The translations under genes were made by a program, and so were the position numbers. 52,399 nucleotides of DNA from an uncultured Gammaproteobacteria bacterium (GTDB lineage Bacteria; Pseudomonadota; Gammaproteobacteria; Ga0077554; Ga007554), in NCBI GenBank assembly GCA_947085925.1, contig CAMTYI010000043.1:1-52399 (forward strand), given 5' to 3'. Each line of letters begins with the position of its first letter. The first letter of the stretch is position 1. This document shows positions 4,072-50,340 of this stretch, one piece after another. Below the pieces are notes generated by a model. It did not search any database. It was not told where the DNA came from and saw nothing but the letters and a program-made list of their open reading frames with translations.

Positions 4072-4100
4072 GAGAAGCTTCACTTCAAGGAGATTACATC

Positions 4101-8789: not shown

Positions 8790-8805
8790 TCAATAAACTC
8801 CGCGT

Positions 8806-9585: not shown

Positions 9586-9598
9586 CCTAACTGCCTTT

Positions 9599-10258
9599 AT
9601 GAATCAGCCGCTTTTTACTCAAAATCCCGCCCGTGTGCGTGTTAAAATCTGCGGGATTACCCGTTGCGAGGACGCTCTCGCCGCCATCCGGCTGGGCGCG
9701 GATGCTATCGGCCTGGTGTTTTATGCGCACAGTCCGCGTGCAGTCGTGGTCGCGCAGGCCCGGGAGATTGTCCACATACTGCCGCCGTTTGTAACCGTGG
9801 TTGGACTGTTTGTGGACGCGCCGCCGGAGGAGATTCGATCTGTGCTGGATGGTGTGCGTATCGACCTGTTGCAGTTCCACGGCGATGAGACTCCGGGCGA
9901 TTGCAGTGGATACGGCAAGCCTTATATCAAGGCGGTGCGCATGCGGGAGGGCGTGGACGTGGCGGAAATCGCCCGTTGTTATGCGGACGCGGGTGGTTTG
10001 TTGCTGGACAGCTACCGCGCGGGCGTGGCAGGTGGCACGGGGGAGACGTTTGACTGGGCGCGTGTGCCCCCTGATGTGGATAAACCGATTATTCTGGCCG
10101 GCGGACTCACGCCGGAAAATGTGGCTGATGCGATTGTTCAGGTCCGTCCTTATGCGGTGGACGTGAGCGGCGGGGTGGAATCAGCGAAAGGTATCAAGGA
10201 TGCGGGAAAGATTGCCGCATTCATGCGAGGTGTAAAGAGTGTCAGCGAAAGAAATTAA
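9599..10258 (+). CDS. trpF: phosphoribosylanthranilate isomerase
   Basis: I chose the internal ATG at 9599 to avoid overlapping truA. VKICGIT motif. Sits directly upstream of trpB-trpA. Confidence 0.85.
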
Positions 10259-18156: not shown

Positions 18157-19074
18157 ATGAATAACAGGCTTCTCTCGGGATTGGCATGGTTGGTATTTGC
18201 CGCATGGATGCCCGTTGCTGGGGCGCAAGAGACGGCAGTGTATCCGGTGGAGCTGGTGGGTGAGATGTTTGAATACACGGTGCAATCCGGTGATTCCCTG
18301 ACCCGTATCGGCGCCCGCTTTGGTGTCGAGCAGATCGTTCTTGCGCGGACAAATGACATAAAATACAGCGCCATGCTCCAGCCCGGCCAGATGTTGCGGA
18401 TTGATAACCGCCATATTGTCCCGGAGCGGCTGGATGAGGGCATACTGATCAACCTGCCGCAGCGCATGCTGTATTATTTTCAGGCAGGTAAGATGACACT
18501 CCATTATCCAGTAGGGTTAGGGCGCCCAAGCTGGCCGACACCGGACGGGCGCTTCAAGGTTGTCGATCCACAGGAAAACAAGACCTGGCATGTACCCAAG
18601 TCCATCCAGGAGGAGATGCGCCGGGAGGGGAAAGTTGTGCTGACCCATGTGCCGCCGGGCCCGGATAATCCTTTGGGGAAACACTGGATTGGCCTGAGTC
18701 TTCCGGGTATTGGCATTCATGGCACTGTCGCCCCGGCGAGTATCTATCACTTTCAGAGTCATGGTTGTATTCGCTCGCATCCGGATGATATTGCCGCGCT
18801 TTTTCAACGTGTGACCAAAGGCGAATCCGGCAAGATCATATACACCCCCGTGTTGCTGGCGCGCCTTGAGGATGGCCGCATCTTTCTTGAGGTGAACCGG
18901 GATGTTTATAAAAAAGGGATTGAGCCGATAACCATTGTGGAGAACTCAGCCCAGGCCCAGGGGATCTCCAATATGTTAAACTGGGACAAAGTGAAAAACG
19001 TAATTCGACTCAAGGAAGGGCTGGCGCGTGAAGTAGGGTTGCCGGTTCCTGTTTCAAACGGAGGTACACAATGA
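18157..19074 (+). CDS. L,D-transpeptidase with an N-terminal LysM domain
   Basis: 305 aa. Signal peptide, LysM (YTVQSGDSLTRIGARFGV) and YkuD active site HGT...SHGCIR. Confidence 0.85.
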   Translation: MNNRLLSGLAWLVFAAWMPVAGAQETAVYPVELVGEMFEYTVQSGDSLTRIGARFGVEQIVLARTNDIKYSAMLQPGQMLRIDNRHIVPERLDEGILINLPQRMLYYFQAGKMTLHYPVGLGRPSWPTPDGRFKVVDPQENKTWHVPKSIQEEMRREGKVVLTHVPPGPDNPLGKHWIGLSLPGIGIHGTVAPASIYHFQSHGCIRSHPDDIAALFQRVTKGESGKIIYTPVLLARLEDGRIFLEVNRDVYKKGIEPITIVENSAQAQGISNMLNWDKVKNVIRLKEGLAREVGLPVPVSNGGTQ

Positions 19075-19625
19075 AAGATACCAGCCGCCGCCAATTTTTG
19101 AAGCTAGGGATGCTCGTTGCTGCGGCAGGCTTGCTTCCCTTCCCGGCGCGCGCAACACTGCGCGATGTTATGGCGCCGGAGCGGGTTTTGGCCTTGTATA
19201 ACACCCACACCGGAGAAAGCATCAAGACCGTCTATTGGGCGGAGGGTGGTTACATCCCAGAGGGGTTGGCGGACATCAACCATATTTTGCGTGATCACCG
19301 CAATGATGCAATAAAAGACATGTCTCCCGCGTTGCTGGACTTGCTGTACAGCATCAATAATGCCGTGGCTGCCCGCCAGCCCTTCCATATTATTTCCGGT
19401 TATCGCTCGCCCGCCACCAATGCCATGCTCGCCGCGCGCAGCAATGGCGTGGTCAAACACAGCATGCATCTGGATGGCATGGCGACGGATATCCGTGTTC
19501 CAGGGCGTGAGTTGATGCAGGTGCGCCACGCCGCGCTGACGCTGCAAGGCGGTGGCGTTGGTTATTATCCCGGCTCTGATTTTGTCCATGTGGATGTGGG
19601 CAGGGTGCGGCAGTGGCAGGGTTGA
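19071..19625 (+). CDS. mepK: DUF882 / peptidase M15 family murein endopeptidase (YcbK/MepK-like), Tat-exported
   Basis: 184 aa. Tat motif SRRQFLKLG. LAS Zn motifs SMHLDGMATDI and FVHVDVG. ATGA overlap with the L,D-transpeptidase gene. Confidence 0.8.
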   Translation: MKDTSRRQFLKLGMLVAAAGLLPFPARATLRDVMAPERVLALYNTHTGESIKTVYWAEGGYIPEGLADINHILRDHRNDAIKDMSPALLDLLYSINNAVAARQPFHIISGYRSPATNAMLAARSNGVVKHSMHLDGMATDIRVPGRELMQVRHAALTLQGGGVGYYPGSDFVHVDVGRVRQWQG

Positions 19626-27259: not shown

Positions 27260-28033
27260 TTATTGCGCCTTAGCTTTGCGGCGGGCAAACCCAAGACCAA
27301 CTAGGCCCATGCCCATTAACGCGAGGGTTGCTGGCTCTGGAACTGATTCGCTACGGAAAGCAGAACCCCAAGCATCTACTAGACCTTGACTGCCATAGTT
27401 GACAATAAAACTTCCGGCGCCGGTGGTGGTATCAAGGCCAATGACAGATGTTCCTGTGATACCATAGAGATTAATGTTGTTGTCGGTCGCCAGGCCGTAA
27501 ACAGCAGAATAGCCGATGTTACCGATTAGTGAGCCGAACCCGGTCGAGGTGTTAAGCTCCACCAGCGTGTCACCGACGCTGCTCAAATACAATTTGTTAT
27601 TAATAAAAGCCAAATCGCCCGAGGAGTTGTAGGCAGCGCCACCGTTACCGATCAAGGTGGCAAGGCCAGAGCTTGTGTTGACGCTGTACAATGAGCTGTT
27701 TGCGGCATACAGGGTGCCAGTTGAATCGAACACAAGCGAATTGGCAGAAGTACCCAAGTTGCCGATGAGCGTAGTGGTCGCTGTAGCCTGATTGATAGAG
27801 TACAAGCTGCCAAAAGTGATCCCGTAAAGATTGCCACTTGGATCAAAAGCGATATCGGTCATCGCTTGGCCCATGTTGCCGACGACGTTTACCGTGCCGG
27901 AAGCGACATCAACGGTTCCCAGGTTGCCTTGCGAATCTCCTACCCAGAGGATTGGTGCGGCCGATGCGGTAGCACTCAATGCTGCCGCCAGTGTCAGCGC
28001 CGCGATGTGAAGCGACTTGCTAATGAAGTTCAT
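27260..28033 (-). CDS. PEP-CTERM sorting-domain protein with internal beta-propeller-like repeats
   Basis: 257 aa. Signal peptide, 4-5 repeats of about 45 aa (..G.LY.I/V...TG..T.IGN.G..) and the C-terminal VPEPATLALMGMGLVGLGFARRKA motif. AAGGAG RBS. Confidence 0.85.
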   Translation of the reverse strand: MNFISKSLHIAALTLAAALSATASAAPILWVGDSQGNLGTVDVASGTVNVVGNMGQAMTDIAFDPSGNLYGITFGSLYSINQATATTTLIGNLGTSANSLVFDSTGTLYAANSSLYSVNTSSGLATLIGNGGAAYNSSGDLAFINNKLYLSSVGDTLVELNTSTGFGSLIGNIGYSAVYGLATDNNINLYGITGTSVIGLDTTTGAGSFIVNYGSQGLVDAWGSAFRSESVPEPATLALMGMGLVGLGFARRKAKAQ

Positions 28034-28085: not shown

Positions 28086-28101
28086 AGCAAAATTCATGCC
28101 A
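28086..28101 (-). promoter_or_regulatory. sigma-54 (-24/-12) promoter
   Basis: The minus strand reads TGGCATGAATTTTGCT against the consensus TGGCACG-N4-TTGCW (one mismatch). It lies 53 nt upstream of the ATG at 28033. Confidence 0.65.
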
Positions 28102-37798: not shown

Positions 37799-37812
37799 AA
37801 GCATTGCATGGC

Positions 37813-38703
37813 TCAATTGCCTGGTGCTACTGGAGGCGGCGGGGCGCTATTGTCCGGCGGTGGTGCGGCTTGTGGCTCGCTCGTTTCCATATTACCCGTA
37901 GGTGCGGGTGCTGTTTCCGGCTCCACCGATGGCTCTGTTTCCTTAGGCATGTCGAGTTCCGGCGCGGGTTTCGCAGGTGGTGCGATGAGGCGTGGCGCGG
38001 CGTTGAAGTCGCGGCCGTAACGTATTGCCATGCGCGCCAGGATGATCCTGGTCTTGCGCGTTGCGCGACGCGCATCACGGTGAGTGTCGTAATAGCGCGG
38101 ATTGGGTACGATAGCAGCGAGCCACGCGGCTTCGCGGGGTGTCAGCTTCGCGGCAGCCTTGCCGAAATAGTGGTGGGCTGCGGCCTCCGCGCCGAATATG
38201 CCATTGCCCCATTCGATCACGTTCAGGTAGATTTCGAAGATGCGCTGTTTGCTCAGGCTTTTTTCCAGCATCACCGTGATGATAGCCTCTTGCCCCTTGC
38301 GCCACGGGGTGCGCTGGGTGGAGAGGAACAGGTTCTTGGCGAGCTGTTGGGTGATGGTGCTGCCGCCTGCGACGACCTTGCCCTGTTTGATATTCTTTTC
38401 CGCAGCGACCTTGATGCCTTCCCAGTCGAAACCTTCGTGGCTGTAAAAAGTGGCGTCTTCCGAGGCGATGATGGCGCGTTGCAGATAGCGTGAGATGCGC
38501 GGCATCGGCACCCAGCGATAGTCGACGTGGGCTGGTTTTGATTCCGCTTCCATCTCTGCCAGACGTCCGCGCATCAGCGCGGTGTCTTCAGGGTTGTGGG
38601 TGTCGAGACGTGTTACTTGCCAGTAGGTCCAACCTTGGTAAAACAGTGCTGCGAGCATGGCGAGGATAAAGCCGCGCCAGAGCCATTTTGAAAGAACCTT
38701 CAT
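37813..38703 (-). CDS. mtgA: monofunctional peptidoglycan glycosyltransferase with a Pro/Ala/Glu-rich C-terminal tail
   Basis: 296 aa. GT51 motifs RAIIASEDATFYSHEGFD and GGSTITQQLAKN. The last 55 aa or so are low-complexity (APPAKPAPE...PPPPVAPGN). Confidence 0.9.
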   Translation of the reverse strand: MKVLSKWLWRGFILAMLAALFYQGWTYWQVTRLDTHNPEDTALMRGRLAEMEAESKPAHVDYRWVPMPRISRYLQRAIIASEDATFYSHEGFDWEGIKVAAEKNIKQGKVVAGGSTITQQLAKNLFLSTQRTPWRKGQEAIITVMLEKSLSKQRIFEIYLNVIEWGNGIFGAEAAAHHYFGKAAAKLTPREAAWLAAIVPNPRYYDTHRDARRATRKTRIILARMAIRYGRDFNAAPRLIAPPAKPAPELDMPKETEPSVEPETAPAPTGNMETSEPQAAPPPDNSAPPPPVAPGN

Positions 38704-38743
38704 TGAATATTATCTTTGCGTGTTTGCGTCTAAACGTAAAAAC

Positions 38744-39355
38744 TTAAATAACTCTTATACCCTCATGCTCAAGCATCCGCACCAGGCTGATCAATGGCAG
38801 GCCAATGAGTGCGGTAGGATCTTCGCCTTCCAGTTTGTCGAAGAGCGCGATGCCCAAGCCTTCCGATTTGAATGAACCCGCGCAATTATAGGGCTGCTCG
38901 TGCCGCAGATAATTTTCGATCTGCGCCGCGCTCAGTACACGAAACACAACGGCGAAGGGGATGACATCCACCTGCATGCGCCGGGTGGCGCTATTGAGCA
39001 GGCACAATCCAGTCAGAAATTCCACGCGTTTGCCGGAGGCGTTGGCGAGTTGTTTTACTGCATTGTCATGATTACCCGGTTTTCCCAGGGTTTCACCGTC
39101 CAGCACCGCTATCTGATCGGAGCCGATGATCAGCGCATCGGTGTGTTGTTGCGCTATCGCGTGTGCCTTGGCGCCGGCGAGCCGTGCCACAAGACTTTCC
39201 GGTGATTCACCGGGGAGCGGTGTTTCATCGGCTTGCGGTGGGATGGCGTTGAAGGGCAAGCCCAGCCGATGCAGTAACTCTTTTCTAAAAGGGGAGGAAG
39301 ACGCCAGGATCAACTGCTGCCGCTTGTGCCCATTATTATGTTCAGCCGATTTCAA
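38744..39355 (-). CDS. yceF: Maf-family nucleoside-triphosphate pyrophosphatase (YceF-type)
   Basis: 203 aa. LILASSSPFRKELL N-terminus and GAYGIQ-like region. Confidence 0.8.
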   Translation of the reverse strand: MKSAEHNNGHKRQQLILASSSPFRKELLHRLGLPFNAIPPQADETPLPGESPESLVARLAGAKAHAIAQQHTDALIIGSDQIAVLDGETLGKPGNHDNAVKQLANASGKRVEFLTGLCLLNSATRRMQVDVIPFAVVFRVLSAAQIENYLRHEQPYNCAGSFKSEGLGIALFDKLEGEDPTALIGLPLISLVRMLEHEGIRVI

Positions 39356-41162
39356 TCAATGCCTCGTCGGGGTTAACGTTATCACCTTTACTGACATTCA
39401 CGGCGATTACCTTTCCGGCAATCGGCGCCTGCACTTCAGTTTCCATCTTCATGGCCTCGGTCACCAGCACCGGATCGCCCGCCTTCACGGTGTCCCCCAG
39501 CTTCACCAGGACTTCGACAATGGTGCCCGGCATGGACGTGGTGACATGCCCCGGCGCCTGCGCACGCGTCCGCCTGCTGCCTTTGCCTGCGGTTTGTTTT
39601 GTAGGTTCGGTAGTGAGTTCTTGTAGCGTTTCAACAATAATCTCTTCAGGCAAGCCATCCACGGAGACATAGAAGGGCCGCCGGTTCTGCTCCTGGTGGC
39701 CGCTGCCTGTCACATGAATGTGATAGGTTTCGCCATGCAGGGTGACGTTGAATTCCAAAGGTGTTGCGCCCCGTATGGCGGCGCCGTCGCTGGCTACTTC
39801 CAGCGGTTCGGGTACGAGTGTGTCCGTGGCGCGCTGTTCGAGAAACGTGCGGGCGATTTCCGGGAACATGGCGTAACTCAATACGTCTTCTTCGGACGTT
39901 GCAAGAGCGCCGATGTCGCCACGCAACGTTTCCATTTCATCCTTGAGCAGGTCTGCGGGACGGCAATCGATGACTTCTTCATTGCCAATAGCCTGCTGGC
40001 GCACGATGGCGTTTACCACCCCCGGCGTCTTGCCGTAACGGCCCTGCAAATAGAATTTTACCTCATTGGTGATGGTCTTGTAACGCACGCCCGCCAAAAC
40101 ATTGAGCAGGGCTTGCGTGCCGACAATTTGCGACGTGGGTGTGACCAGGGGCGGGAATCCCAGGTCTTCGCGTACCTGCGGGATTTCCGCCAGCACCTCA
40201 TTCATGCGGTCCAATGCGCCTTGTTCGCGCAACTGGTTGGCGAGATTGGAGATCATGCCGCCAGGGATCTGGTTGACCTGAACGCGCGTGTCGATGCCCG
40301 TGTACTCGCTCTCGAAACGCTGGTATTTCTTGCGCACATCGTAAAAATAAAAACCAATCTCTTGCAGTAGTTCGAGATTGAGGCCGGTGTCGTATTGCGT
40401 GCCACGCAGCGCCGCGACCATACTCTCGGTGGGCGGATGGCTGGTACCGCCTGAAAAGCTGGAAATGGCAGTGTCGATGTGACGGCAGCCGTTTTCAACC
40501 GCCTTTAACTGACACATGCTTGCCAGGCCAGAGGTGGCATGGGAATGCAAATGAACAGGGATTTTTACCGCGTTGACCAGGTGGCGCACCAATTCCGCAG
40601 TGACCATCGGCGTGAGCAACCCGGCCATATCCTTGATGGCGATACTGTCGCAGCCCATTGCTTGAAGTTCGCGCGCCATCTCAACGAATTTGGGGGTGCT
40701 GTGCACAGGGCTGGTGGTGTAGCACATCGTGCCTTGGGCGTGTTTGCCGGCGGCCTTAACGGATTCTATGGATACGCGCAGATTGCGGGTGTCGTTGAGC
40801 GCGTCGAAGATGCGGAACACGTCGATGCCATCGGCGGCGGCGCGCTGCACGAAGGCGCGCACCACATCGTCGGAATAATGGCGGTAGCCGAGCAGGTTTT
40901 GTCCGCGCAACAACATTTGCAGCCGGGTGTTGGGCAGCGCCGCCCTGAGCTTTTTCAGGCGCTCCCACGGATCTTCCTTGAGGAAGCGCAGACAGGCATC
41001 AAACGTTGCGCCTCCCCAGACCTCCAGCGACCAGAAATCCGCCTGATCCAGCTTGGCGCAGATCGGCAGCATATCCTCGGTGCGCATCCGGGTGGCAATC
41101 AGGGATTGATGTGCATCGCGCAGTATGGTGTCGGTGATGTAGACGCGGGACATGTCGGGCAC
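39342..41162 (-). CDS. pycB: pyruvate carboxylase subunit B (carboxyltransferase plus biotinyl domain; OadA-like)
   Basis: 606 aa. TLRDAHQS HMGL-like N-terminus and the C-terminal biotinylation motif EAMKMET. Directly downstream of a biotin carboxylase gene. Confidence 0.75.
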   Translation of the reverse strand: MPDMSRVYITDTILRDAHQSLIATRMRTEDMLPICAKLDQADFWSLEVWGGATFDACLRFLKEDPWERLKKLRAALPNTRLQMLLRGQNLLGYRHYSDDVVRAFVQRAAADGIDVFRIFDALNDTRNLRVSIESVKAAGKHAQGTMCYTTSPVHSTPKFVEMARELQAMGCDSIAIKDMAGLLTPMVTAELVRHLVNAVKIPVHLHSHATSGLASMCQLKAVENGCRHIDTAISSFSGGTSHPPTESMVAALRGTQYDTGLNLELLQEIGFYFYDVRKKYQRFESEYTGIDTRVQVNQIPGGMISNLANQLREQGALDRMNEVLAEIPQVREDLGFPPLVTPTSQIVGTQALLNVLAGVRYKTITNEVKFYLQGRYGKTPGVVNAIVRQQAIGNEEVIDCRPADLLKDEMETLRGDIGALATSEEDVLSYAMFPEIARTFLEQRATDTLVPEPLEVASDGAAIRGATPLEFNVTLHGETYHIHVTGSGHQEQNRRPFYVSVDGLPEEIIVETLQELTTEPTKQTAGKGSRRTRAQAPGHVTTSMPGTIVEVLVKLGDTVKAGDPVLVTEAMKMETEVQAPIAGKVIAVNVSKGDNVNPDEALIEIG

Positions 41163-41173
41163 TCGTTGCTGGG

Positions 41174-42607
41174 TTAAGAGTGGGCGTTGGCCGTGGCCAT
41201 GTGCGCGTATATGGCAGCGGCAATCACGGCGGCCAATTCGCGCGGCGGGCGGCGCACGGAATAGTTTATCAGCTCGGGATGGTTTTCCACGAAACTGGTG
41301 TCAAATGTAGCGTTCTGGAATTCTGGCGAGCGAATGATTTCCAGATGGTAAGGGATAGTGGTCTTGATGCCATACACGCCAATGTCCTGCAGGGCGCGGT
41401 TGGCGCGGTCCAGCACCTCATCCCAGGTTAATGCCCACACGGTTAGCTTCACGCACAGTGAATCATAATAGGGCGGTATTTCATAGCCGGTGTATATCGC
41501 GCCATCGGTGCGCACGCCGGGGCCGCCGGGCGCAAAATAGCGGGTAATACGCCCGAAGCTGGGCAGGAAACCGTTTTTTGGGTCTTCCGCATTGATGCGG
41601 AATTCCATCGCGTAGCCGCGGCGCTGCACCTCATCCTGCCGGTAGCGCAAGCGCAGTCCCGCTGCGATGCGGATCTGTTCGCGCACAATATCGATACCGG
41701 TAATCTGTTCCGTGACCGTGTGCTCCACCTGCAAGCGGGTATTCATTTCCATGAAATAGAAATTTCCCCCGGCATCCAGCAAGAATTCCACGGTCCCGGC
41801 ATTCTGATAGCCGACGGCTTGCGCTGCGCGCACGGCAAGCTCGCCCAAAAAGGCGCGTTGCTCATCGGTAAGTTGCGGCGACGGAGCGATCTCTATCAAC
41901 TTCTGGTGGCGACGCTGGATCGAGCAGTCGCGCTCGAACAGGTGAATCACATTGCCGTGGTGGTCGCCCAGCACCTGCATTTCGATGTGGCGCGGATTGA
42001 CGATGCACTTTTCCAGGAATATCTCCGCGCTGCCGAACGCCTTGGTAGCTTCGGAGATCACGCGGTCATAGTTTTTTCTCAGATCCTCGGCGTTTTCGCA
42101 GCGACGGATGCCGCGCCCGCCGCCGCCCGAGGTGGCCTTGAGCATTACCGGATAACCGAATTCAGCGGCACGCGCCAGCGCCTCGTCAATGCCGCTAAGA
42201 TTGCCTTCACTGCCTGGTATGACTGGAATGCCAGCGGCAATCATGGACTGGCGCGCGGCGATTTTGTCGCCCATGTGGCGGATTACGTCGGCGGAGGGGC
42301 CGATAAAGCGGATGTTGCGGCGCGCGCAAATCTCGGCCAGTTCGGGGTTTTCCGACAGAAAGCCATAACCAGGGTGCAGCGCGTCGCAGCCAGTGGCCAC
42401 CGCCAGATTGGCGATGCGGTGGGCATTCAAGTAGCCAGCGACCGACTCGGGGCCGATGTTATAGGCTTCGTCGGCCTTCTTGACATGCAAGGCATGGCGG
42501 TCGGCATCGGTGTATATCGCCACCGATTTGATGCCCATCTCCGCGCATGCGCGCACGATGCGCACGGCGATTTCGCCACGGTTGGCGATCAACACTTTTT
42601 TGATCAA
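41174..42607 (-). CDS. pycA: pyruvate carboxylase subunit A (biotin carboxylase)
   Basis: 477 aa. ATP-grasp biotin carboxylase (KVLIANRGEIAVRI, GGGGRGIR). No adjacent BCCP or accB. Confidence 0.75.
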   Translation of the reverse strand: MIKKVLIANRGEIAVRIVRACAEMGIKSVAIYTDADRHALHVKKADEAYNIGPESVAGYLNAHRIANLAVATGCDALHPGYGFLSENPELAEICARRNIRFIGPSADVIRHMGDKIAARQSMIAAGIPVIPGSEGNLSGIDEALARAAEFGYPVMLKATSGGGGRGIRRCENAEDLRKNYDRVISEATKAFGSAEIFLEKCIVNPRHIEMQVLGDHHGNVIHLFERDCSIQRRHQKLIEIAPSPQLTDEQRAFLGELAVRAAQAVGYQNAGTVEFLLDAGGNFYFMEMNTRLQVEHTVTEQITGIDIVREQIRIAAGLRLRYRQDEVQRRGYAMEFRINAEDPKNGFLPSFGRITRYFAPGGPGVRTDGAIYTGYEIPPYYDSLCVKLTVWALTWDEVLDRANRALQDIGVYGIKTTIPYHLEIIRSPEFQNATFDTSFVENHPELINYSVRRPPRELAAVIAAAIYAHMATANAHS

Positions 42608-42897
42608 GCGGCTGCCTCACGGATTGGTTGTGTCGTATCAGAGAATCGGCCTGCGCCTTGCTTTCTTTAGTTATCGATTTCTACGGGAATCAACTGCGGA
42701 AGTCAAGGCGGTGGCCTTCGAACCGCGACCCGTGTATCGCCGCGAAGGATTGACCTGCTTCCAGGTTCGGCGCTAGTTCATTGAGCATAGGCCAAGACGA
42801 ATCTGACCTGGTCGATTGTCAGGTGCGCCGCTGGCATTGCCACCTCATTGTTACTGAATGATTTGGTGGCTACCATCGGTGCACTATTTTTGAGAAT

Positions 42898-43733
42898 TCA
42901 CAACGCCTTTTTGCCGTATCTGCGTACCATGCCCCATCCAGCCAAGCCCAATACCATCAAGGCAATGCTGGCAGGTTCGGGGACGGTAGCGGCATTGTTC
43001 ACCTGTCCCGAGAAGGTGATCACAGTGGTCGAGCGGGGATCGGTGTCCCGCTGGAGCAGAGCGAGGGAGCCTGTCGAGCGCATGGCTTCCGAAATGAGCA
43101 GATCAATGGTTGCCGTTCCAGAGGGAGCAAGGTTGCCGAGATCGAACCCGAGCGCCAGCGCGACATCGTCCGGGGATCCGGGAGGGAGGGCGTTGGTATT
43201 GTCGAGCGTGCCCGCGAGCAGGTGGTCGACAATGTCCCCGAAGACGAAGCCCGGCTCGTCGATTTCCCATGAAGCACCCGGCCCGGCGACGCCGATCACC
43301 TCGCCGTACTCGTTGAAGAAGGTGTTGGTGGACCCGTCGATCTCCGCATCGAGAAAGACCAGGAACCGCAGGCCATCGAGCGCAACGCCGGTAGTATTGG
43401 AAAAACTGTATTTCAGGCTCAAATCGGCGGCGTCAGGCGACAGGGAGGCCGAAAAGGTATAGGCCAGACCGATTGGCAAGGCATCCACGGACAGCCGCGC
43501 GGCGGTTCCCACCGTAAAGGTGGCAATGCCGGTGCCGGGCCGTTCAGATCCTGCCCCGTGATGACGAGAAAGGCGTCGAATTCGTGCACCACACCGCCGG
43601 TGCTGATGGTGAACGTCTGTCCATGGACGGTGCCGCCCTCACCCTGTGGCCCGAAGGAGGTGATACTGATCGCCCACGCGGGGGCAGGCAGCGCAAGCAG
43701 CAACGTCCAGAGTAATGCAAATATCCGGCGCAT
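42898..43733 (-). pseudogene. PEP-CTERM sorting-domain protein, split by a frameshift
   Basis: ORF 43419-43733 supplies the signal peptide MRRIFALLWTLLLALPAPAWA plus about 50 plausible aa. ORF 42898-43512 (-1 frame) supplies the rest, ending VPEPASIALMVLGLAGWGMVRRYGKK. The join is at minus-strand AAC GGC CCG GCA (forward about 43535-43542). Confidence 0.7.
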
Positions 43734-43737
43734 ATCG

Positions 43738-45656
43738 TTACCGCCTCAGGGGTCCCATCACCGGCGTGGCGCTGACTTCGGCGGACGGGGGCGATATCAA
43801 GCCGCGCTCGCGCAGCCAGCGCACCACGTAGTAATAGGTGATGCCGTTGGTCAGCCCGGCGTCCTCATAGGTTGCATAGCTCGTCACGTGCCCAGCCTTG
43901 ATGAGCTGATACGGTCCGCCCGCAGTCGTGCCGCGGTAGATGTTGTAGCCCGCCGCACCCTCCACCGGCGTCCACACCAGGGCCACCTTGCCTTCCTTGG
44001 CGCGGACCCGCAGATTCTCGACCGGGCCGGGTTCTACGGCCATCACGATCTGGTTCACCTGGCAGTTGTTGGTCTCGTCCAGCTCCGCCACCGCGCCATC
44101 GGCGTCGGCGCAGGCGCCCATATGGTAGGTGCCTTCCACCAGATCGAACGGCAAGGTGAACTGGAAGCGGCTCTTCTCGCTCGACTGTCCCGGCGCCAGC
44201 GGCCCGACCCGCCGCTCGGCGATGGGGCGGTCCTGCCGGGGGTCGATCACATCATCGGGCGACAGGTAATAGCGGGTGACGGAAGGTGCGGCGGCAGTGG
44301 TGCCGGTATTGCCGGTGATCTCGGTAACGGTCACCGAGGCGCCGCCCTTGGTTTTGAGGAGAGGCGGGATGAAGAGTTCGATCACCAGATCCGGCCCGCC
44401 TTGCCAGGTGACTCCAGCTTGCCCGAATTCGGTGCGTACCTCACCCTCCTCGCCCAGCCATATCCGGTCGGTACCCAATGCGGTGCCGGTGTAGCTGAAG
44501 CTGGCTTTTCCGGCCGCATCCGTCACCTTGCGTATTCTCAGTCCGGCGTGAGGCCCATCAATCACCACAAATGACAACGAAAAATTGGGGATCGGTTTGC
44601 CATTGGCGGCATTGATGACGCTGGCGGTGAGGGTATACGTCGCCCCCAGCGACAGGGTTTGCGCCAGGGGCGTGAGGGTTACCTTGGGTTCGAAGGGGAT
44701 GGGGGTGTGCTGGCAATCAGCGCCTGGGTGTTCCAGTACACCAGATCGCGGGCTTCCTGGCGGCGCTCGGAAGACGTGGATTGCGCCAGCGTGGCGAGCA
44801 ACGTTTGCAGGCGCTGCTTGGCCAACGTGCCGTCTCCGGCATCCGCCGCCTGGCGGGCGGAGGCTAATTGATTGATCAACGTGGCAGCAAACGCCTGATC
44901 CGGCACCCAGCCCAGTTGGACGGCCTTGTTGAGATCGTCGCGGAGCTGGTTCCAGTGTTCGTAGGTGCCGGGGTAGACGCCCGAGGGGCCGAGGGTGACG
45001 GTGTGGAATCTGATCTGCTCCTCCACCGCCGCCGCGGCGGCCTCTTCTTCCTCGCTCACATCCTCGACATCGGGAACCACAAGGACCCACTTGGGATCGA
45101 TCACCGCCGCGCGGATCGTGGGGAGGCCGGGGCTGATGAGCGTGTAACCTGAACGTGTCTGGCCCGGCCATATCCGAACGGAGGGACCACTGCTACTAAA
45201 GCTGGCGAATTTACCTGCGACGTTTCCCAGCCAGCCGGAAGGGACTTGCAGGCCGACAGGCACCGGCAGCACCCCCGTCACGGGAGGGGACAATCCGAGG
45301 GAGGAGATCAAGGACCGGCTTTCAGCCACATCCTCTTCGAAGGTGGTGGGGAAGGCGCCTCTGGGCAAAGGCAGGTTGGAGGCATCCATCCAGCTCACAT
45401 CCCCCGAGTGGCCCACGTCGATGGAGAGATCCCATATCTGGCCCGTGTTGCTGGCGGGATTGCTGACGGTGTAGGCATAGGTATACCGGCCCGTAGCCGT
45501 ATCGAAACTGGTCTGCGCTCGCATTTGCACATCCTTGAGCACCGGCACTGGCATCAACCCCACGGCAAGGGCCGGAGTGTACCCCAAGCTGAACCATAGC
45601 CACGCCGCGAGAAGTCCAAGGTATCGCATCACTTTACACTCAGTTGAGATCGACAT
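43738..45656 (-). pseudogene. large secreted multidomain protein (N-terminal unknown domain, helical FIMAH-like region, Ig-like, CARDB-like and FN3 domains), split by a frameshift
   Basis: ORF 44679-45656 carries the signal peptide (..MRYLGLLAAWLWFSLGYTPALA) and about 300 aa. The -1 frame continues from HTPIPFEPKVTLTPLAQ to 43738, with a CARDB-like block (..YYLSPDDVID..ELDETNN) and FN3 (VENLRV..YNIYRG..YYYVV). The join is at forward G5, 44701-44705. Confidence 0.65.
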
Positions 45657-45719
45657 ATTTCCCCGCTCGTTGCTCGTTTGTCTTTTGCTATGGCTCGCAA
45701 CTTTCGATGCACGAGATCA

Positions 45720-46418
45720 TCAGTCAGTGAAATACTCCCACAGGATTTCTTGAACTGCCAGTTTTGGCCCGAGCCGAAACACGATGTTAGCGTGCCAAGC
45801 GAACTCAAATCCATCACCAGGTGCGTATTTGTCCCACGCATATTCGATCTCGCTACCGGGCCGATGCTGTGTTGAATTCGCTGGTTGCCCCAGCGCTTTG
45901 ATGAACTGATCCACTGGCTGACCCACACGCAGGCCGCAGGGCAAGGCAACGGCGGGATCGCGCAGGACGAGCATCTTGACTCGGTAAGGCGGAGAATCTT
46001 CATGATCCCCGCGAACCTGGAATCGGGCGCCGGAGATTTCGACGTAATGGAGAACGACTCCCACTTCTTGCGGATCCGGCGCCGACCAGAAGCGGGTTTT
46101 GGCCGATGCATCGGCCGCGCTCACAGCGCCCGGATCGACTATTCCTTTCGACAGCCCCGGAAGCAGCTTCGTCTTTAGCGGCGCATCGCCGAACGTAAGC
46201 AGGCATTTATTCGCCTTTGGCGGGGCCTCGGTTTTGGCCGGTTCGGTCACCGATTCATGATGCAAGGTAGAAATAACGCCGCGATTGGGCGGGGTATCTG
46301 CCGCTATCGACGCATGGAATGGCATCGCCATTGTGGTGAGGATGAAGAAGAACAGGCCATTCAATTGTGCCGGTCTCCGCAAAGGATGTGCTGCTTCGCA
46401 CTCAATCGAAATCGACAT
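45720..46418 (-). CDS. secreted hypothetical protein
   Basis: 232 aa with a signal-like N-terminus (..RRPAQLNGLFFFILTTMAMPFHASIAA). Its start overlaps the end of the upstream peptidase gene by 17 nt. I recognise no family. Confidence 0.55.
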   Translation of the reverse strand: MSISIECEAAHPLRRPAQLNGLFFFILTTMAMPFHASIAADTPPNRGVISTLHHESVTEPAKTEAPPKANKCLLTFGDAPLKTKLLPGLSKGIVDPGAVSAADASAKTRFWSAPDPQEVGVVLHYVEISGARFQVRGDHEDSPPYRVKMLVLRDPAVALPCGLRVGQPVDQFIKALGQPANSTQHRPGSEIEYAWDKYAPGDGFEFAWHANIVFRLGPKLAVQEILWEYFTD

Positions 46419-47274
46419 GTTTTCTACCCTTACTTTCGCAATAACGCTTCACCGGTGGAAGCTGGCGATGGGCTTCTTTGATCGCCTTATCAAGAGCATC
46501 GTCATCTTCGCAATTCACTGTAACGCCGCCCTCATCCGCCCGGTTGAGATCCATATCGGTGCCGGTGCGGTGCGAGGCGTGCGGCTTGGTCCAGTTGCTG
46601 TCGATATCGAATACCCCACCTTTTGGCAGGCTCAGGTCATTGATGCTGAGCCGTCTCCCTGTAATTTTGAAGTATTCGGAGGCCAGGTAGACCGCCCGAC
46701 CCACGGTATTCAGCGTGCCCCACGTCCCCTCGGGGTGAGAGGCTGTGCCGCCGCGCGCCGTGATGTGGAATGCCGTGCTGGTGGGAAGCCTTGTCAGCCC
46801 CGGTATCCCCACATCAATGGTGTTTTTGCGTTTCTGGGAATTGAATGTGAAACATCCCCCAGCACACCGCCGCCCCGGCGGCGCGGTGAGCGTCTCCTCC
46901 ACGATGATCTTGCCCGCCACTTGCGGCATCGGGTGGGTGATCAGCACTTCGCTATTCTGCGTCTGGCCACCGACACCGAGCGGGCTGGGGTCGGTGTCGG
47001 TGCCGCTGAACTGCAAGACGCCGTTGGCGGGCTGGATGACGGGGTGGGTATCGAAGCCGTGGTTATGTCCACCGTTGTTATCGGGCGACGTCCTGGGATC
47101 CTTGATGCCGATAGCCCGGTATGTCAAGGCACAGTTCAGTAATTGGCGAGTGTCGATGTCATAGCAAGAGATGTAGTTTTTATACTTGACGGGATTCTTG
47201 TTGGGCAACGACGGCGCCTGGATATAGATCCCGTTCATAGACATACCCGAAACCAAAGAAGGGCTGCGCCGCAC
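46402..47274 (-). CDS. LAS-superfamily (peptidase M15/M74-like) Zn-peptidase; N-terminus uncertain, possibly frame-broken from a signal-peptide ORF at 47180-47383
   Basis: INDLSLPKGGVFD...PHASHRTGTDMDL resembles MepA IGDMGMPAGGRF..GHASHQTGLDVDI. The C-terminal KHVDFD matches the HVD third Zn-ligand motif, also seen in the MepK-like protein of this window (FVHVDVG). Confidence 0.55.
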   Translation of the reverse strand: MRRSPSLVSGMSMNGIYIQAPSLPNKNPVKYKNYISCYDIDTRQLLNCALTYRAIGIKDPRTSPDNNGGHNHGFDTHPVIQPANGVLQFSGTDTDPSPLGVGGQTQNSEVLITHPMPQVAGKIIVEETLTAPPGRRCAGGCFTFNSQKRKNTIDVGIPGLTRLPTSTAFHITARGGTASHPEGTWGTLNTVGRAVYLASEYFKITGRRLSINDLSLPKGGVFDIDSNWTKPHASHRTGTDMDLNRADEGGVTVNCEDDDALDKAIKEAHRQLPPVKRYCESKGRKHVDFD

Positions 47275-47455
47275 ACAAGCCGGTCAGGAGCGGGAGAACG
47301 AATCGTAGGCCGACGCCGCGCGCCGCTTTGCGTTTCGGTGTTGCCCCATAGTCATCGGCGATAAAGCCCGGACACCCGGCCATATACTGCCCCCCCCGTG
47401 CGATTCGACGCTATGCCGACGTTTCTTGCCACAACGGATGTGTGCGGTTGAGGTT

Positions 47456-47483
47456 CTTATAGCATGAGCTGGGGGGTAGTCAA
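47456..47483 (-). promoter_or_regulatory. candidate sigma-70 promoter of the 47.4-42.9 kb operon
   Basis: Minus strand TTGACT (47478-47483), a 16-nt spacer containing C6, then TATAAG (47456-47461). It lies about 70 nt upstream of the ATG at 47383. Confidence 0.45.
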
Positions 47484-47501
47484 GCGCAACAGCGCTTGAC
47501 T
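47478..47501. promoter_or_regulatory. perfect 24-bp palindrome (candidate operator) in the divergent region
   Basis: AGTCAAGCGC-AACA-GCGCTTGACT. One arm is the -35 hexamer of the minus-strand promoter candidate. Confidence 0.5.
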
Positions 47502-47541
47502 TTCAAGCTCAATATGGAAGGATTGGATTTGTCAGGCATTT

Positions 47542-47571
47542 TTGACAGGAGGTGTCTGCCGGTTGTAAAAT
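47542..47571 (+). promoter_or_regulatory. candidate sigma-70 promoter of yceD-rpmF
   Basis: TTGACA (47542-47547), 18-nt spacer, TAAAAT (47566-47571). The -10 ends only 9 nt before the yceD ATG. Confidence 0.35.
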
Positions 47572-47580
47572 GTCCGGCTT

Positions 47581-48102
47581 ATGTCCAGCCCGCTGCCCGA
47601 ATATATAGATCCTTTGCGTCTTGCCGATGCCCGTGCGGTATTGCAGGGGCAGGTGGCTGTGTCAGGCATGGCGCGGCTTGCGCCTTCATTGCGTTCGACG
47701 CAAGGTGTGGTCGATTTCGATCTGGCGTTTAGCGTGGATATGGAAGGGATTCGTTGCATCCACGGCTCCCTGAGCACGCAATTGGATGTTATTTGCCAGC
47801 GTTGTATGCAGCCAATGGATCTGCCGCTGGAAGCGCAGGTGGCGCTGGGTGTGGTGGTGTCGATGCAGGAAGCCGAGCGTTTGCCAAGCGCTTATGAGCC
47901 GTTGGTTGTGGGTGCGGAGCCGGTTTCCCTAAAAGAAATGATTGAAGACGAGCTGCTGTTGGTCTTGCCGGTGGCACCAATACACACTGAACAGCAGTGC
48001 CCGGCTTGGCGAGAACGTATTCTCGAAGAAGGGCAAGAGGAATCGACCCAGGAAGACAAGAAAAACCCGTTTGCAGTGCTGGCCCAGTTGAAGAAGACGT
48101 AA
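47581..48102 (+). CDS. yceD: YceD (DUF177) family protein
   Basis: 173 aa. LPEYIDPLRLA N-terminus and CQRC Cys pair. Directly upstream of rpmF. Confidence 0.85.
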   Translation: MSSPLPEYIDPLRLADARAVLQGQVAVSGMARLAPSLRSTQGVVDFDLAFSVDMEGIRCIHGSLSTQLDVICQRCMQPMDLPLEAQVALGVVVSMQEAERLPSAYEPLVVGAEPVSLKEMIEDELLLVLPVAPIHTEQQCPAWRERILEEGQEESTQEDKKNPFAVLAQLKKT

Positions 48103-48169
48103 AGGCGATCTAGTCGATTGCCCGATTGATGATTTATAAACGCTTTAATCTATAGCAGGAGTATGAAAA

Positions 48170-48349
48170 ATGGCCGTACAGCAGAATCGTAAAACCCCCT
48201 CCAAGCGTGGCATGCGCAGATCCCATGACGCGCTTACCTCGGCCACATTGTCGGTTGAGCCTACCACGGGTGAAACCCATTTGCGCCATCACATCAGCCC
48301 GGATGGTTATTATCGCGGCCGCAAGATTCTCAACACCAAGGGCGAGTAA
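48170..48349 (+). CDS. rpmF: 50S ribosomal protein L32
   Basis: My own translation: [59 protein letters not shown] (59 aa). AGGAG RBS. Absent from the ORF track because it is under 60 aa. Confidence 0.9.
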
Positions 48350-48352
48350 GAC

Positions 48353-49375
48353 TTGGGTCTTACTCTCGCGCTGGATGCCATGGGGGGCGATCATGGCCCC
48401 CATGTGGTTGTACCCGCCGCCCTGAGTGTGCTTGCCGAACAGCCTGATCTCACGCTGATCCTGGTGGGCGATCAGGATATCCTTGCCAAGGAGCTGCTGG
48501 TACATCGCGCGCAAACCAGTGACAGGTTGCAGATCCAGCACGCCTCTCAATGTGTTGAAATGCATGAGCCGCCTTCCCAGGCATTGCGTGGGAAGAAAGA
48601 TTCATCGATGCGTGTTGCCATTGATCTGGTCAAGGCTGGCCGCGCCCAGGCCTGTGTCAGCGCGGGCAATACGGGCGCCTTGATGGCCACTGCCCGTTAT
48701 GTGCTGAAAACCTTGCCTGGCATCGACCGGCCCGCCATCATCTCCGCCTTGCCGACCATGACGGGGCACACCCATATGCTCGATCTGGGCGCGAATGTGG
48801 ATTCGACCGCCGAGCATTTATTCCAGTTCGCCGTGATGGGGTCGGTGTTGACCAGCGCGGTCGATAATATCGAGCGCCCGCGGGTCGGCCTTCTCAATAT
48901 CGGCGAGGAAGAGATCAAGGGCAACGAGATAGTCAAGGAAGCCGCGCGCATGCTCGCCGCCAGCGATATCCATTATGTGGGTTTCGTCGAGGGCGATGAC
49001 ATTTATAAAGGCAGCGTCGATGTCGTGGTGTGTGATGGTTTTATTGGTAATGTCGCGCTGAAAACCAGCGAAGGCGTGGCGAAAATGATCAGCCACTACA
49101 TGAAGCAGGAATTCAAGCGTTCTCTCTTTACCCGATCGGTGGCATTGGTGGCGATGCCGGTATTGAAGGCGTTTCGCGCCAAAATTGATCCTCGCCAGTA
49201 TAACGGCGCGAGTTTGGTGGGATTGCAAGGGATCGTCATTAAAAGCCATGGTTGCGCAGATGTATTTTCGTTCGCCAACGCCATCAAGGAGGCGGTGACC
49301 GAAGTCAAAAAGGACGTGCCGCAACGCATCAGAAAGCAACTGGAATCCTTCCTGACAGAGAGGCGTGCAAGTTGA
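48353..49375 (+). CDS. plsX: phosphate acyltransferase PlsX
   Basis: 340 aa, TTG start. [13 protein letters not shown]-terminal motif. Confidence 0.9.
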
Positions 49376-50340
49376 AATATTCGCGCATCATCGGCACCGG
49401 CGGTTACTTGCCTGAAAAGGTATTGACCAACGCCGACATTGAAAAGATCGTCGATACCACGGATCAGTGGATCGTGGAGCGCACCGGCATCCACGAGCGC
49501 CACATCGCGGCTCCCGGTGAAACCACGTGCGATATGAGTGAAGTTGCTGCGCGGCGCGCTATTGAGGCGGCGGGCATCCAGGCCTCCGATATTGATCTCA
49601 TTGTGGTGGCAACCACTACCCCGGATCGGATATTTCCCAGCACTGCCTGCCTGCTCCAGCGACGTCTGGATATCCACGGCCCGGCGGCTTTTGATCTTCA
49701 AGCCGCTTGTACCGGCTTCATCTATGCCTTGGGTGTTGCGGACAAGTTTATCCGTTCCGGCAGCGCGCGCAATGTGTTGGTGGTGGGCGCGGAGACCATG
49801 TCGCGCGTCGTTGACTGGACGGACCGTGGCACCTGCGTGCTGTTCGGCGATGGCGCTGGCGCGGTGGTGCTTGGTGCCAGCGATGAGCCGGGTATCCTGT
49901 CGACACATTTACATTCCGATGGCATCTACGAAAACCTGCTGACCATCCCCTACGGCATATCGCAAGGTTTTGAAAACATTCAACAGGGCAGTCAGTACGT
50001 TAGGATGCAAGGTAACGAGGTTTTCAAGGTCGCCGTGAATACCCTGGGGCGTATTGTGGATGAGACGTTGGCGGCTAATCAGCTCGAAAAGTCCGACGTG
50101 GATTGGCTGGTGCCGCACCAAGCGAATATTCGTATTATCGAAGCCACCGCTAAAAAGCTGAAAATGCCTATGGAACGAGTGGTTGTCACCGTGGGCGAGC
50201 ACGGCAACACCTCGGCGGCCTCGGTGCCACTCGCGCTTGATGTCGCAGTGCGGGATGGCCGTATCCAACGTGGTGATACGCTATTGCTGGAGGCCTTTGG
50301 CGCAGGTTTCACCTGGGGCTCGGCATTGATTAAATATTAA
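49372..50340 (+). CDS. fabH: 3-oxoacyl-ACP synthase III
   Basis: I chose the TTG start at 49372, overlapping the plsX stop (TTGA). [25 protein letters not shown] aligns with the canonical FabH N-terminus. Cys in LQAACTGF. Confidence 0.9.

Follow-up and report, generated by a model that had tools for sequence, protein, structure and literature searches.

What is a closely packed group of genes for exported proteins doing between pycA and yceD in an uncultured member of the Gammaproteobacteria, and does this copy still work? The window, i.e., the whole 52,399-nt stretch of DNA that was analysed, has the order maf, pycB, pycA, then the gene cluster, then yceD, plsX, fabH and fabD, as described in the initial annotation. 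That annotation proposed a tightly packed operon of four minus-strand genes for secreted proteins, and four co-oriented genes, all for exported proteins, are present at 42898-47383. The spacings given for them (a 17-nt overlap of g1 and g2 at 46402-46418, a 63-nt gap between g2 and g3 at 45657-45719, and a 4-nt gap between g3 and g4 at 43734-43737) agree exactly with the open reading frame (ORF) coordinates. The genes, here called g1 to g4, and the elements around them are as follows.

42710-47506 (no strand assigned): accessory insertion of 4797 bp that the close relative L055 lacks
47456-47483 (-): predicted sigma-70-like promoter of the cassette, with TTGACT at 47483-47478, a 16-nt spacer and TATAAG at 47461-47456
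47471-47476 (-): poly-C tract in the promoter spacer
47384-47455 (-): conserved leader of ~70 nt (five-cassette alignment), with a G8 run at 47390-47397 just before the g1 ATG
47180-47383 (-): g1, 5' fragment with the start codon and signal peptide (MAGC...), in a frame that differs from the remainder of the gene
46402-47274 (-): g1, main ORF, with a Cys/His-rich N-domain followed by the predicted MepA-like LAS zinc-peptidase core (HASHRTGTDMD ... KHVDFD)
45720-46418 (-): g2, 232-aa exported protein, the only single intact ORF among the four genes
45637-45656 (-): putative remnant of the 3' end of the peptidase gene with its gene junction, now the 5' end of g3
44679-45656 (-): g3, N-terminal part (325 aa, ending at a premature stop), with signal peptide, beta-sandwich N-domain and helical FIMAH-like bundle
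43738-44708 (-): g3, C-terminal part, with Ig-like, CARDB and FN3-like domains, in another frame (ORF 43738-45171)
43419-43733 (-): g4, 5' fragment, with the signal peptide and first ~70 residues of a PEP-CTERM protein
42898-43512 (-): g4, main ORF in a second frame, with the C-terminal PEP-CTERM sorting signal

An accessory insertion between pycA and yceD

The close relative L055 (GCA_021731145.1) aligns to window positions 37810-42709 and 47507-50340 with ~94-95% identity. In this relative, only ~1 nt lies between the two aligned segments, and pycA and yceD are 176 nt apart. Window 42710-47506 is therefore a 4797-bp accessory insertion, and the earlier impression that the block is accessory is borne out by an exact empty site. 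The GC content is 63-64% at 43-45 kb versus ~57% for the window. The annotators knew of no described system with this gene combination, and likewise no characterised pathway or publication on the cassette was matched in our domain-database and literature searches.

Frame breaks in the window copy

The unusual frame breaks noted earlier in the cluster are real indels with respect to in-frame orthologs, and three of the four genes are interrupted. Compared with L001 and L005, g1 carries an extra A at 47223 (+1 nt, within TAT); g3 has a 7-nt deletion at ~44708, between ACACCC direct repeats, when compared with L002-L005; and in g4, the 20 nt at 43511-43530 are missing from L002 and L004. Each of these changes shifts the reading frame, which is unbroken in the orthologs at each of the three sites. 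In the state found here, g1 has lost its signal peptide, g3 ends after the helical bundle, and g4 is split. About 45 other genes of the window have full-length Pfam coverage, and no break was detected in any other gene of the 52 kb. By our arithmetic, the chance that three random indels would all fall in ~4.4 kb of ~47 kb of coding DNA is near 8e-4. Because the three indels are absent from the orthologs while ~45 other genes look intact, the copy in the window is probably a decaying pseudogene cluster and most likely non-functional, on a contig that is apparently MAG-derived and in which indels and homopolymers may be assembly artefacts or minority variants.

The same observations bear on the possibility that the operon is intact and functional here, the breaks being assembly or sequencing errors or programmed frameshifts, which we regard as improbable. 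The seeming MAG origin of the contig, together with the closest related records all being MAGs, fits such a reading, as does L002, which is also broken in the signal-peptide region of the peptidase; breaks that recur might point to sequence that is error-prone or slippery. On the other hand, an insertion within TAT, a deletion between direct repeats and a gain of 20 nt are not typical homopolymer errors, and they lie at three unrelated sites without a shared slippery motif. The uninterrupted orthologs and the unbroken state of all other genes in the window also argue against it.

A conserved gene pair with two clade-specific additions

All four genes occur in the same order in L002/L008 and L004/L014, which are uncultured Gammaproteobacteria with two further genomic contexts, and the four families thus co-occur as a unit elsewhere. 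The idea of a four-gene operon as the unit nevertheless holds only in part: the arrangement recurs, but its conserved core is smaller and the copy here is broken. In 24 of 25 non-redundant loci the large gene follows the peptidase gene on the same strand, directly adjacent except in L034, and the genes either overlap or are no more than ~60 nt apart. Carriers of this pair include Gammaproteobacteria, Nitrospirota, Geobacter, Burkholderiales, Sulfuricella, Gallionella, Mariprofundaceae, Steroidobacteraceae, Acidiferrobacterales and Thermodesulfovibrionales. Among the non-redundant loci compared, the neighbourhoods of the pair show no further recurring gene family, and every homolog found is of metagenome or MAG origin. 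Judged from gene order across these loci, the evolutionarily conserved unit is the two-gene pair of peptidase and large protein, present across many phyla; this core pair is widespread but unstudied. By the same comparison, the genes for the 232-aa protein and the PEP-CTERM protein were added in a small gammaproteobacterial clade only.

The 5' end of g3 points to how the first of these additions may have arisen. Its sequence (ATGTCGATCTCAACTGAGTG) resembles the g1 3' end and g2 start (ATGTCGATTTCGATTGAGTG), and in loci without g2 (L005, L006) the large gene directly follows the peptidase gene. This resemblance and the adjoining genes in the loci that lack g2 indicate that g2 was inserted into the peptidase/large-gene junction with a duplication.

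Architecture of the encoded proteins

Most domain assignments of the initial annotation were reproduced. CARDB and PEP-CTERM were recovered above their cut-offs and the FN3-like domain through PDB 3mpc, whereas the matches for the LAS peptidase, the Ig-like domain and the helical region (FIMAH) fell below the Pfam thresholds.

The g1 product scored 18.8 bits for Peptidase_M74 (PF03411; cut-off 25, E 1.3e-3) and 19.5 bits for NCBIfam PRK09429 (cut-off 272), both below threshold, and a precomputed PF03411 match exists for 6 of 23 homologs. In an hhalign comparison, it matched E. coli MepA with 88% probability over the H-x6-D zinc motif, where H271 and D278 align with H113 and D120 of MepA, the first two zinc ligands (HRTGTDMD vs HQTGLDVD). 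Residues H268, H271, D276 and D278 are invariant in the 23 homologs, and H322 is nearly invariant in the KH(V/I)DF motif (HYHIRF in L005), a region beyond the end of the hhalign alignment. H322 is thus a candidate at most for the third zinc ligand, which in MepA is H211 of a C-terminal H-x-H motif. A PDB profile search gave a match to 1tzp (E 0.009), and an intact protein of 326 aa is encoded in L001 and L060. The best explanation is that g1 encodes a Sec-exported peptidase with a putative C-terminal MepA-like LAS zinc-peptidase domain. Peptidases of this kind cleave peptidoglycan peptides.

Homologs of g2 are few: a search of 5.8 billion proteins yielded only 10, and 36 cluster representatives turned up among 1.8 billion. 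Its AF2 model has block-mean pLDDT values of at least 90 over residues 70-232, which contain two helix-plus-sheet units. All PDB matches were non-significant (E > 1e-3), the best being the DUF4309 protein 4ygt (E 0.023, target-normalised TM 0.41), the putative BLIP 3d4e in a profile search (E 0.13), and the Bacteroides T6SS immunity protein BtiO, 9uu1 (E 0.14, TM 0.44).

When rejoined, g3 encodes 639 aa that align end to end with the intact 635-aa proteins of L003/L004 and with the 601-aa called product of L002. The N-terminal part was modelled with a mean pLDDT of 92.4 (AF2), and its beta-sandwich N-domain, which had no PDB match at E < 1e-3, is proposed to be a novel domain. It is followed by a region that scores 21.4 bits for FIMAH, slightly under the Pfam cut-off of 24.8, and is a helical bundle in the AF2 model. 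The Ig-like region had Big_1 and Big_3_5 matches below threshold only, whereas CARDB (PF07705) reached 42.4 bits against a cut-off of 22.7 (E 8.3e-11). The terminal domain had no Pfam fn3 match; it matched the Fn3-like protein 3mpc (E 4.8e-9) and fibronectin 6mfa (E 1.8e-5) in the PDB. An N-domain of the g3 type was also found as a stand-alone paralog.

The g4 product exceeded the cut-offs of both PF07589 (27 bits vs 20.7) and TIGR02595 (24.3 vs 16), and matched the floc-associated PepA family (NF033554) with 39.1 bits (E 7e-10), under the equivalog cut-off of 80 bits. In the L002 and L004 orthologs, signal peptide and PEP-CTERM signal lie on one ORF; here they are parted by the +20-nt frameshift and do not form one polypeptide. 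PEP-CTERM proteins are cargo of exosortase. Pfam scans of the larger ORFs of the 52-kb window revealed no exosortase. A second, intact PEP-CTERM gene is located in the window at 27260-28033.

Promoter and leader

The cluster had been credited with a promoter of its own, and a predicted sigma-70-like element at 47456-47483 is indeed kept across five cassettes. It was read by eye from the sequence, and the scanning tool made no call there. In L001, L060, L002 and L005 the promoter-like element and the leader are kept despite differing upstream contexts. The pattern is TTGACT-A-C(n)-...-TATAAG, with a tract between the -35 and -10 boxes whose length is polymorphic among relatives: 6, 10, 8, 9 and 6 C in the window, L001, L060, L002 and L005, giving assembly-derived spacers of 16-20 nt. 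The promoter regions of L060 (8 C) and L001 (10 C) are otherwise identical. The G run of the leader has 8, 7, 7, 5 and 4 bases in the same five cassettes, the G8 run being the longest G/C homopolymer in the window, and the leader had no Rfam family match. Comparable G or C tracts stand in or beside promoter-like elements of L004, L020 and L018. The variation of the poly-C tract from 6 to 10 among relatives suggests that the cassette promoter may be subject to phase variation.

Possible function of the cassette

With moderate confidence, we propose that 42710-47506 is a horizontally acquired cassette of cell-envelope or matrix proteins, with its own promoter, a core of peptidase and large protein and two clade-specific additions, that has decayed here. 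Our best guess from the predicted domains is that the cassette is an exported module acting on the cell envelope or extracellular matrix. The core would consist of a Sec-exported peptidase with a C-terminal MepA-like LAS domain and a large exported protein with the apparently novel beta-sandwich N-domain, a helical bundle, Ig-like and CARDB domains and, in this clade, an FN3-like end. In the small gammaproteobacterial clade, the pair would have gained g2 at its junction and the PEP-CTERM gene downstream. Once exported, the large protein may bind a surface or matrix polymer and work with, or restrain, the peptidase, and sorting may bring the PEP-CTERM protein to the cell surface or into the extracellular matrix. 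Changes in poly-C length between the -35 and -10 boxes could switch expression of the cassette. Since neither g2 nor the N-domain of the large protein has a significant structural match, the roles given to them are guesses.

A toxin-immunity system is a rather unlikely alternative, in which the LAS peptidase would be a bacteriolytic weapon against neighbours, the 232-aa protein a periplasmic immunity protein or inhibitor, and the large protein a carrier or targeting subunit. Cell-wall degradation is common among exported LAS peptidases (lysostaphin, LasA, T6SS effectors), the 5' end of g2 lies within the peptidase gene, and the cassette is mobile and sporadically distributed, all of which would suit a weapon, as would the weak g2 similarity to 3d4e, 4ygt and 9uu1. 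However, those structural matches are all non-significant, and g2 cannot be a general immunity partner because most lineages with the pair lack it. The neighbourhood comparison linked no secretion system or delivery domain to the cassette, and PADLOC and PHROG gave no matches to it.

It appears very improbable that the pair has a housekeeping role in peptidoglycan remodelling, as an endopeptidase and its regulatory partner, and none at the surface or in the matrix. E. coli has endopeptidases controlled by adaptor proteins, and both the MepA-like catalytic motif and the tight, conserved gene pairing would agree with such an arrangement. Against this, close relatives differ in presence or absence of the pair, its genomic context is variable and its phyletic distribution patchy, and the disrupted copy in the window implies that the organism can do without it. 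CARDB, Ig-like and FN3, which are adhesin-type domains, and the PEP-CTERM partner also point outward from the periplasm.

We also tentatively raise a further possibility, one we think less likely than not by a wide measure: the pair may be an unrecognised, horizontally mobile two-component module, in which the N-domain partners with or gates the MepA-like peptidase at the cell surface, for surface or matrix remodelling or antibacterial action, and which is phase-variable through the promoter homopolymer in Gammaproteobacteria. Such a module would be widespread in uncultured chemolithotrophs, among them Nitrospirota, Gallionella, Sulfuricella, Mariprofundaceae and Acidiferrobacterales.

The pair occurs in many environmentally important, uncultured lineages, seen in MAGs and metagenome contigs only, and its LAS peptidase and large protein with a new N-domain offer structural biology and biochemistry a concrete target. 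How the pair was built up into a cassette of four genes, with a link to exosortase cargo, becomes visible here. Presence/absence polymorphism, a hypermutable-looking promoter homopolymer and active decay in one lineage are all hallmarks of a costly trait that is exposed at the surface and subject to fluctuating selection. For the annotation of this genome, three of the four cassette genes should be marked as pseudogenes.

Comparison with known systems

Homopolymer tracts at the -35/-10 elements are known from phase-variable promoters, for example those of Bordetella fim (poly-C) and Neisseria opc and porA. The cassette resembles these promoters in having a C or G tract between -35-like and -10-like hexamers, with 8 versus 10 bases in otherwise near-identical sequences and a spacer of 16-20 nt. 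It differs in that its hosts are free-living, uncultured environmental bacteria, its tract lengths come from assemblies and its switching is putative.

The likeness of g4 to the cargo of PEP-CTERM/exosortase (EpsH/XrtA) systems, including floc PepA (Haft et al. 2006, PMC1569441; PMC9850573), lies in its above-threshold PEP-CTERM signal, its weak similarity to PepA, and carriers that are environmental bacteria from sediment, groundwater or flocs. For the PEP-CTERM genes of flocs, RpoN-dependent promoters have been described, whereas g4 is fourth in a cassette behind a sigma-70-like promoter, without RpoN-dependent promoters. In addition, no exosortase or EPS genes are linked to g4, and its copy in the window is frameshifted.

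The modelled g2 protein shares with BLIP-like, DUF4309 and small immunity-protein folds (3d4e, 4ygt, 9uu1) two units of helix plus antiparallel sheet and carries the conserved G-L-R-V-G-Q-P...L-G-x-P motif, but all its matches to these folds are non-significant (E 0.02-0.14; TM ≤0.44 on target).

For g1, the comparison is with MepA, the penicillin-insensitive murein DD/LD-endopeptidase (MEROPS M74, LAS fold, PDB 1TZP). Both are exported, and HASHRTGTDMD in g1 corresponds to HASHQTGLDVD in MepA, the upstream SINDLSLPKGG to LIGDMGMPAGG, and the C-terminal KH(V/I)DF resembles HMHVRL. However, g1 scores under the M74/MepA family thresholds, and its N-terminal ~150 residues, which contain four conserved Cys and an NNGGHxH motif, are unrelated. 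The MepA gene stands alone and has a housekeeping role, whereas the g1 peptidase is accessory and always paired with the large protein.

Organization and genomic setting of the cluster

The four co-oriented genes occupy 42898-47383 on the minus strand, with three of them split between reading frames:

47180-47383, minus strand: g1, N-terminal ORF of 67 codons in a different frame
46402-47274, minus strand: g1, main ORF, peptidase
45720-46418, minus strand: g2, 232-aa exported protein, intact
44679-45656, minus strand: g3, large multi-domain protein, first part
43738-45171, minus strand: g3, ORF in a second frame
43419-43733 and 42898-43512, minus strand: g4, PEP-CTERM protein, split

The ORF coordinates reproduce the spacings proposed in the initial annotation: g1 and g2 overlap by 17 nt, g2 and g3 are 63 nt apart, and g3 and g4 are 4 nt apart. 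The setting it described was also confirmed, the cluster being bordered by maf, pycB and pycA at one end and by yceD, plsX, fabH and fabD at the other.

Insertion between pycA and yceD

A close relative (GCA_021731145.1, locus L055), whose YceD belongs to the same 90%-identity cluster as that of the window, has pycA and yceD only 176 nt apart. It aligns to 37810-42709 and 47507-50340 at ~94-95% identity and has ~1 nt in place of 42710-47506, a block (hereafter the cassette) that is, on this alignment, an insertion. Four further contigs with the same pycA-yceD spacing also appear to be empty sites, and L001 (GCA_947085745.1) and L060 carry the cassette at the same site as the window. The GC content reaches 63-64% within the block. 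No integrase, transposase or tRNA was associated with it; the window contains no tRNA to support tRNA-linked island integration, and searches of PHROG and PADLOC gave no match that would point to an origin as a phage endolysin or a defence system.

A perfect 10-bp inverted repeat, AGTCAAGCGC-TGTT-GCGCTTGACT (47478-47501), overlaps the -35 box of the cassette promoter in the window; it is only partial in L001 and L060 and missing in the context of L002 and L005. AGTCAAG is found again at the left junction of the insertion (42700-42709) and at the L055 empty site. The motif and the repeat could represent an operator, or microhomology that served in the insertion.

A conserved peptidase and large-protein pair

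The cassette is mobile. All four genes occur in the same order at two other sites, between a Sua5/YciO-family gene and trpS-scpAB (L002/L008) and between alr and iscR (L004/L014), while L005/L009, downstream of the same Sua5/YciO-family gene, lack g2. These loci are from uncultured Gammaproteobacteria MAGs, and every carrier found was a MAG.

When 185,579 species-representative genomes were scanned with a 12-sequence alignment and the returned loci screened with HMMs, 24 of the 25 non-redundant loci had a peptidase homolog upstream of the large gene and co-oriented with it, directly adjacent except in L034. The peptidase stop and the next start overlap or are at most ~60 nt apart; the two genes form a tightly linked, conserved pair. 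Pair loci were found in Nitrospirota, Geobacter, Burkholderiales, Sulfuricella, Gallionella, Mariprofundaceae, Steroidobacteraceae, Acidiferrobacterales and Thermodesulfovibrionales, and a partial locus outside the non-redundant set (L028, Nitrospinota) is arranged in the same way. When the neighbouring ORFs were clustered all against all, no other recurrent family, for example secretion or regulatory, emerged around the pair. Considering this adjacency and the lack of another recurrent neighbour, the conserved functional unit is the two-gene pair, and g2 and g4 are, judging from their distribution, additions limited to one clade. It is possible that the cassette is a toxin-immunity system, or that the pair has a housekeeping role, but both readings fit the distribution data less well.

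Variants of the pair were also observed. The g3 N-domain and helical bundle also occur as a stand-alone paralog, which lies upstream of the pair in L006 (Nitrospiraceae, 5705-6712), L021 (gammaproteobacterial, 5694-6812) and L022 (Sulfuricella, 5783-6760). A Geobacter MAG (L013) has the pair twice in tandem (3655-7037 and 7369-10751), with products that score identically.

Proteins encoded by the cassette

The match of g1 to Peptidase_M74/MepA was below threshold (Pfam 18.8 bits versus 25; NCBIfam 19.5 versus 272). However, the profile of a 23-sequence g1 family alignment matched MepA (PDB 1tzp) at E 0.009, and hhalign aligned g1 with E. coli MepA at 88% probability, placing HRTGTDMD on the MepA segment HQTGLDVD, which includes the zinc ligands H113 and D120. 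Across the family alignment, H268, H271, R272, D276 and D278 are invariant and H322 nearly so; by these comparisons, g1 contains a MepA-type zinc motif. The N-terminal ~150 residues have four conserved cysteines and an NNGGHxH motif, and this half matched no Pfam family at E <= 1. A second LAS-type peptidase in the window, unrelated to g1, is a DUF882 Peptidase_M15_2 protein that forms an ordinary pair with a LysM-containing YkuD L,D-transpeptidase (18157-19625, plus strand).

Rejoined, g3 encodes 639 aa with a signal peptide. Its N-terminal 325 residues were modeled with AF2 as a beta-sandwich and a helical bundle (mean pLDDT 92.4), and Foldseek matched this model to nothing in the PDB at E <= 1e-3. 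The N-domain matched no Pfam family at E <= 1 and no choice-of-anchor or other NCBIfam family, and FIMAH was below its cut-off on the bundle (21.4 bits versus 24.8). An Ig-like segment (Big_1, below threshold), a significant CARDB domain (42.4 bits versus 22.7) and an FN3-like C-terminal domain (PDB 3mpc, E 4.8e-9) follow. The wider family comprises 155 matches. Outside the gammaproteobacterial clade, most g3 homologs in our alignments (A3/A4) have another conserved C-terminal domain in place of the FN3-like end, with the consensus ...LWPPNHKL...ITQDEPVNGLGDGDTSPDG...ERSGxGNGRVY..., and some have additional PKD or Big_9 domains.

No Pfam or NCBIfam family was found for g2. Proteins of this type are very rare: a search of 5.8 billion proteins gave 10 homologs, and one of 1.8 billion gave 36 cluster representatives. 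Its AF2 model is confident for residues 70-232, which form two helix-plus-sheet units, and no Foldseek match to it passed E <= 1e-3; the highest-ranking ones, all non-significant, were DUF4309 (4ygt) and 9uu1, a T6SS immunity protein, and the sequence profile touched a putative BLIP (3d4e) at E 0.13. Both g2 and g3 start with MSIS(I/T)EC, because the 5' end of g3 (45637-45656 in the window) retains a copy of the peptidase 3' end/junction, ATGTCGATyTCrAyTGAGTG. This indicates that g2 entered the original junction between peptidase and large gene with a duplication. An additional upstream g2 copy, fused to a peptidase-type MAGC signal peptide, is present at L002 8076-9796 (= L008 5550-7270).

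The PEP-CTERM signal of g4 scored above threshold, and the floc protein PepA was weakly matched (39 bits versus a cut-off of 80). The cassette products carry adhesin-type domains and a PEP-CTERM signal. ZepA, a zinc-handling PEP-CTERM exoprotein (PMC10957091), was dropped as an identity for g4, as there was no similarity and no zinc-linked context. The window contains a second, intact PEP-CTERM gene (27260-28033, minus strand, 257 aa). The only exact sigma-54 -24/-12 match in the window, TGGCATGAATTTTGCT (28086-28101, minus strand), belongs to this gene, 53 nt before its ATG, and fits the published RpoN-dependent PEP-CTERM genes (PMC9850573); no sigma-54 promoter was found inside the cluster.

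Decay of the window copy

DNA alignments to orthologs located one indel in each split gene:

47223, minus-strand gene g1: extra A, compared with L001 and L005
~44708, minus-strand gene g3: 7-nt deletion between ACACCC direct repeats, compared with L002-L005
43511-43530, minus-strand gene g4: 20 extra nt, compared with L002 and L004

All three sites are in frame in the orthologs and share no common motif. Programmed frameshifting was rejected, since the indel types differ, the sites are unrelated and the orthologs are in frame. The ~45 other ORFs of the window have full-length Pfam coverage, including proteins of 1020, 1139 and 851 aa; errors are therefore not a general feature of this contig, and an error-prone assembly was rejected as the main cause. 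Export signals are present on intact orthologs, and in the window g1 and g4 each lose the signal peptide through the breaks; g3 stops after the helical bundle, at the same boundary where the natural stand-alone paralogs end. The integrity of g2 carries little weight, because it makes up ~16% of the cluster and three random hits would spare it ~59% of the time. The window copy has decayed, and is probably a decaying pseudogene cluster.

The L002 peptidase gene has its own frame break within the signal-peptide region, where the frame changes after RFLSFFF; either peptidase export would have been disrupted independently for a second time, or the assembly is in error here. The cassette body (45264-47223) is at least 97.5% identical per 200-nt bin to L001 and L060 (at least 99.5% to L001), while 13-20% of positions differ across 47224-47600, which covers the promoter, the leader and the 5' end of g1. 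The switch coincides with the 1-nt frameshift at 47223 and suggests that recombination had a breakpoint here or that the 5' module is hypervariable.

Promoter and leader

Cassettes in differing contexts conserve the sequence between the -35 box and the g1 start codon: TTGACT-A-C(n)-(9-10 nt)-TATAAG-like and then a ~70-nt leader that contains a conserved hairpin and, ahead of the ATG, a G run, which lies at 47390-47397 in the window. The C-tract, at 47471-47476 in the window, numbers 6 there, 10 in L001, 8 in L060, 9 in L002 and 6 in L005, with spacers of 16-20 nt, and its length is the sole difference between L060 and L001 in the promoter region. Tracts of G9 (L004) and G7 (L020) lie within comparable promoter-like spacers, and a C7 tract lies just upstream of a -10-like element in L018. 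Two of the nine G/C runs of at least 6 bases in the window, including the longest, fall within the 200-nt promoter/leader region. A consensus promoter scan did not report this promoter, and the leader matched no riboswitch or known RNA in Rfam at E <= 1. Known phase-variable promoters have a similar architecture, with a homopolymer in the spacer. The cassette promoter resembles them, and switching is putative.

Proposed function and comparison with known systems

Based on these features, we propose that the peptidase would cleave peptidoglycan-type peptides, and that the large protein may bind a surface or matrix polymer and partner with or gate the peptidase. The g2 product, whose fold weakly resembles BLIP or immunity proteins, may act as a modulator of the peptidase, and an exosortase encoded elsewhere would deliver g4 to the surface or matrix. 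Transcription might be switched by changes in tract length.

Our literature search found no paper describing the pair, and nothing relevant for FIMAH or for the combination of CARDB and MepA. The parts are of known kinds, namely an LAS peptidase, a PEP-CTERM cargo, and the domains CARDB, Ig-like and FN3. Undescribed are the conservation of the pair, its new N-domain and the organization of the cassette.
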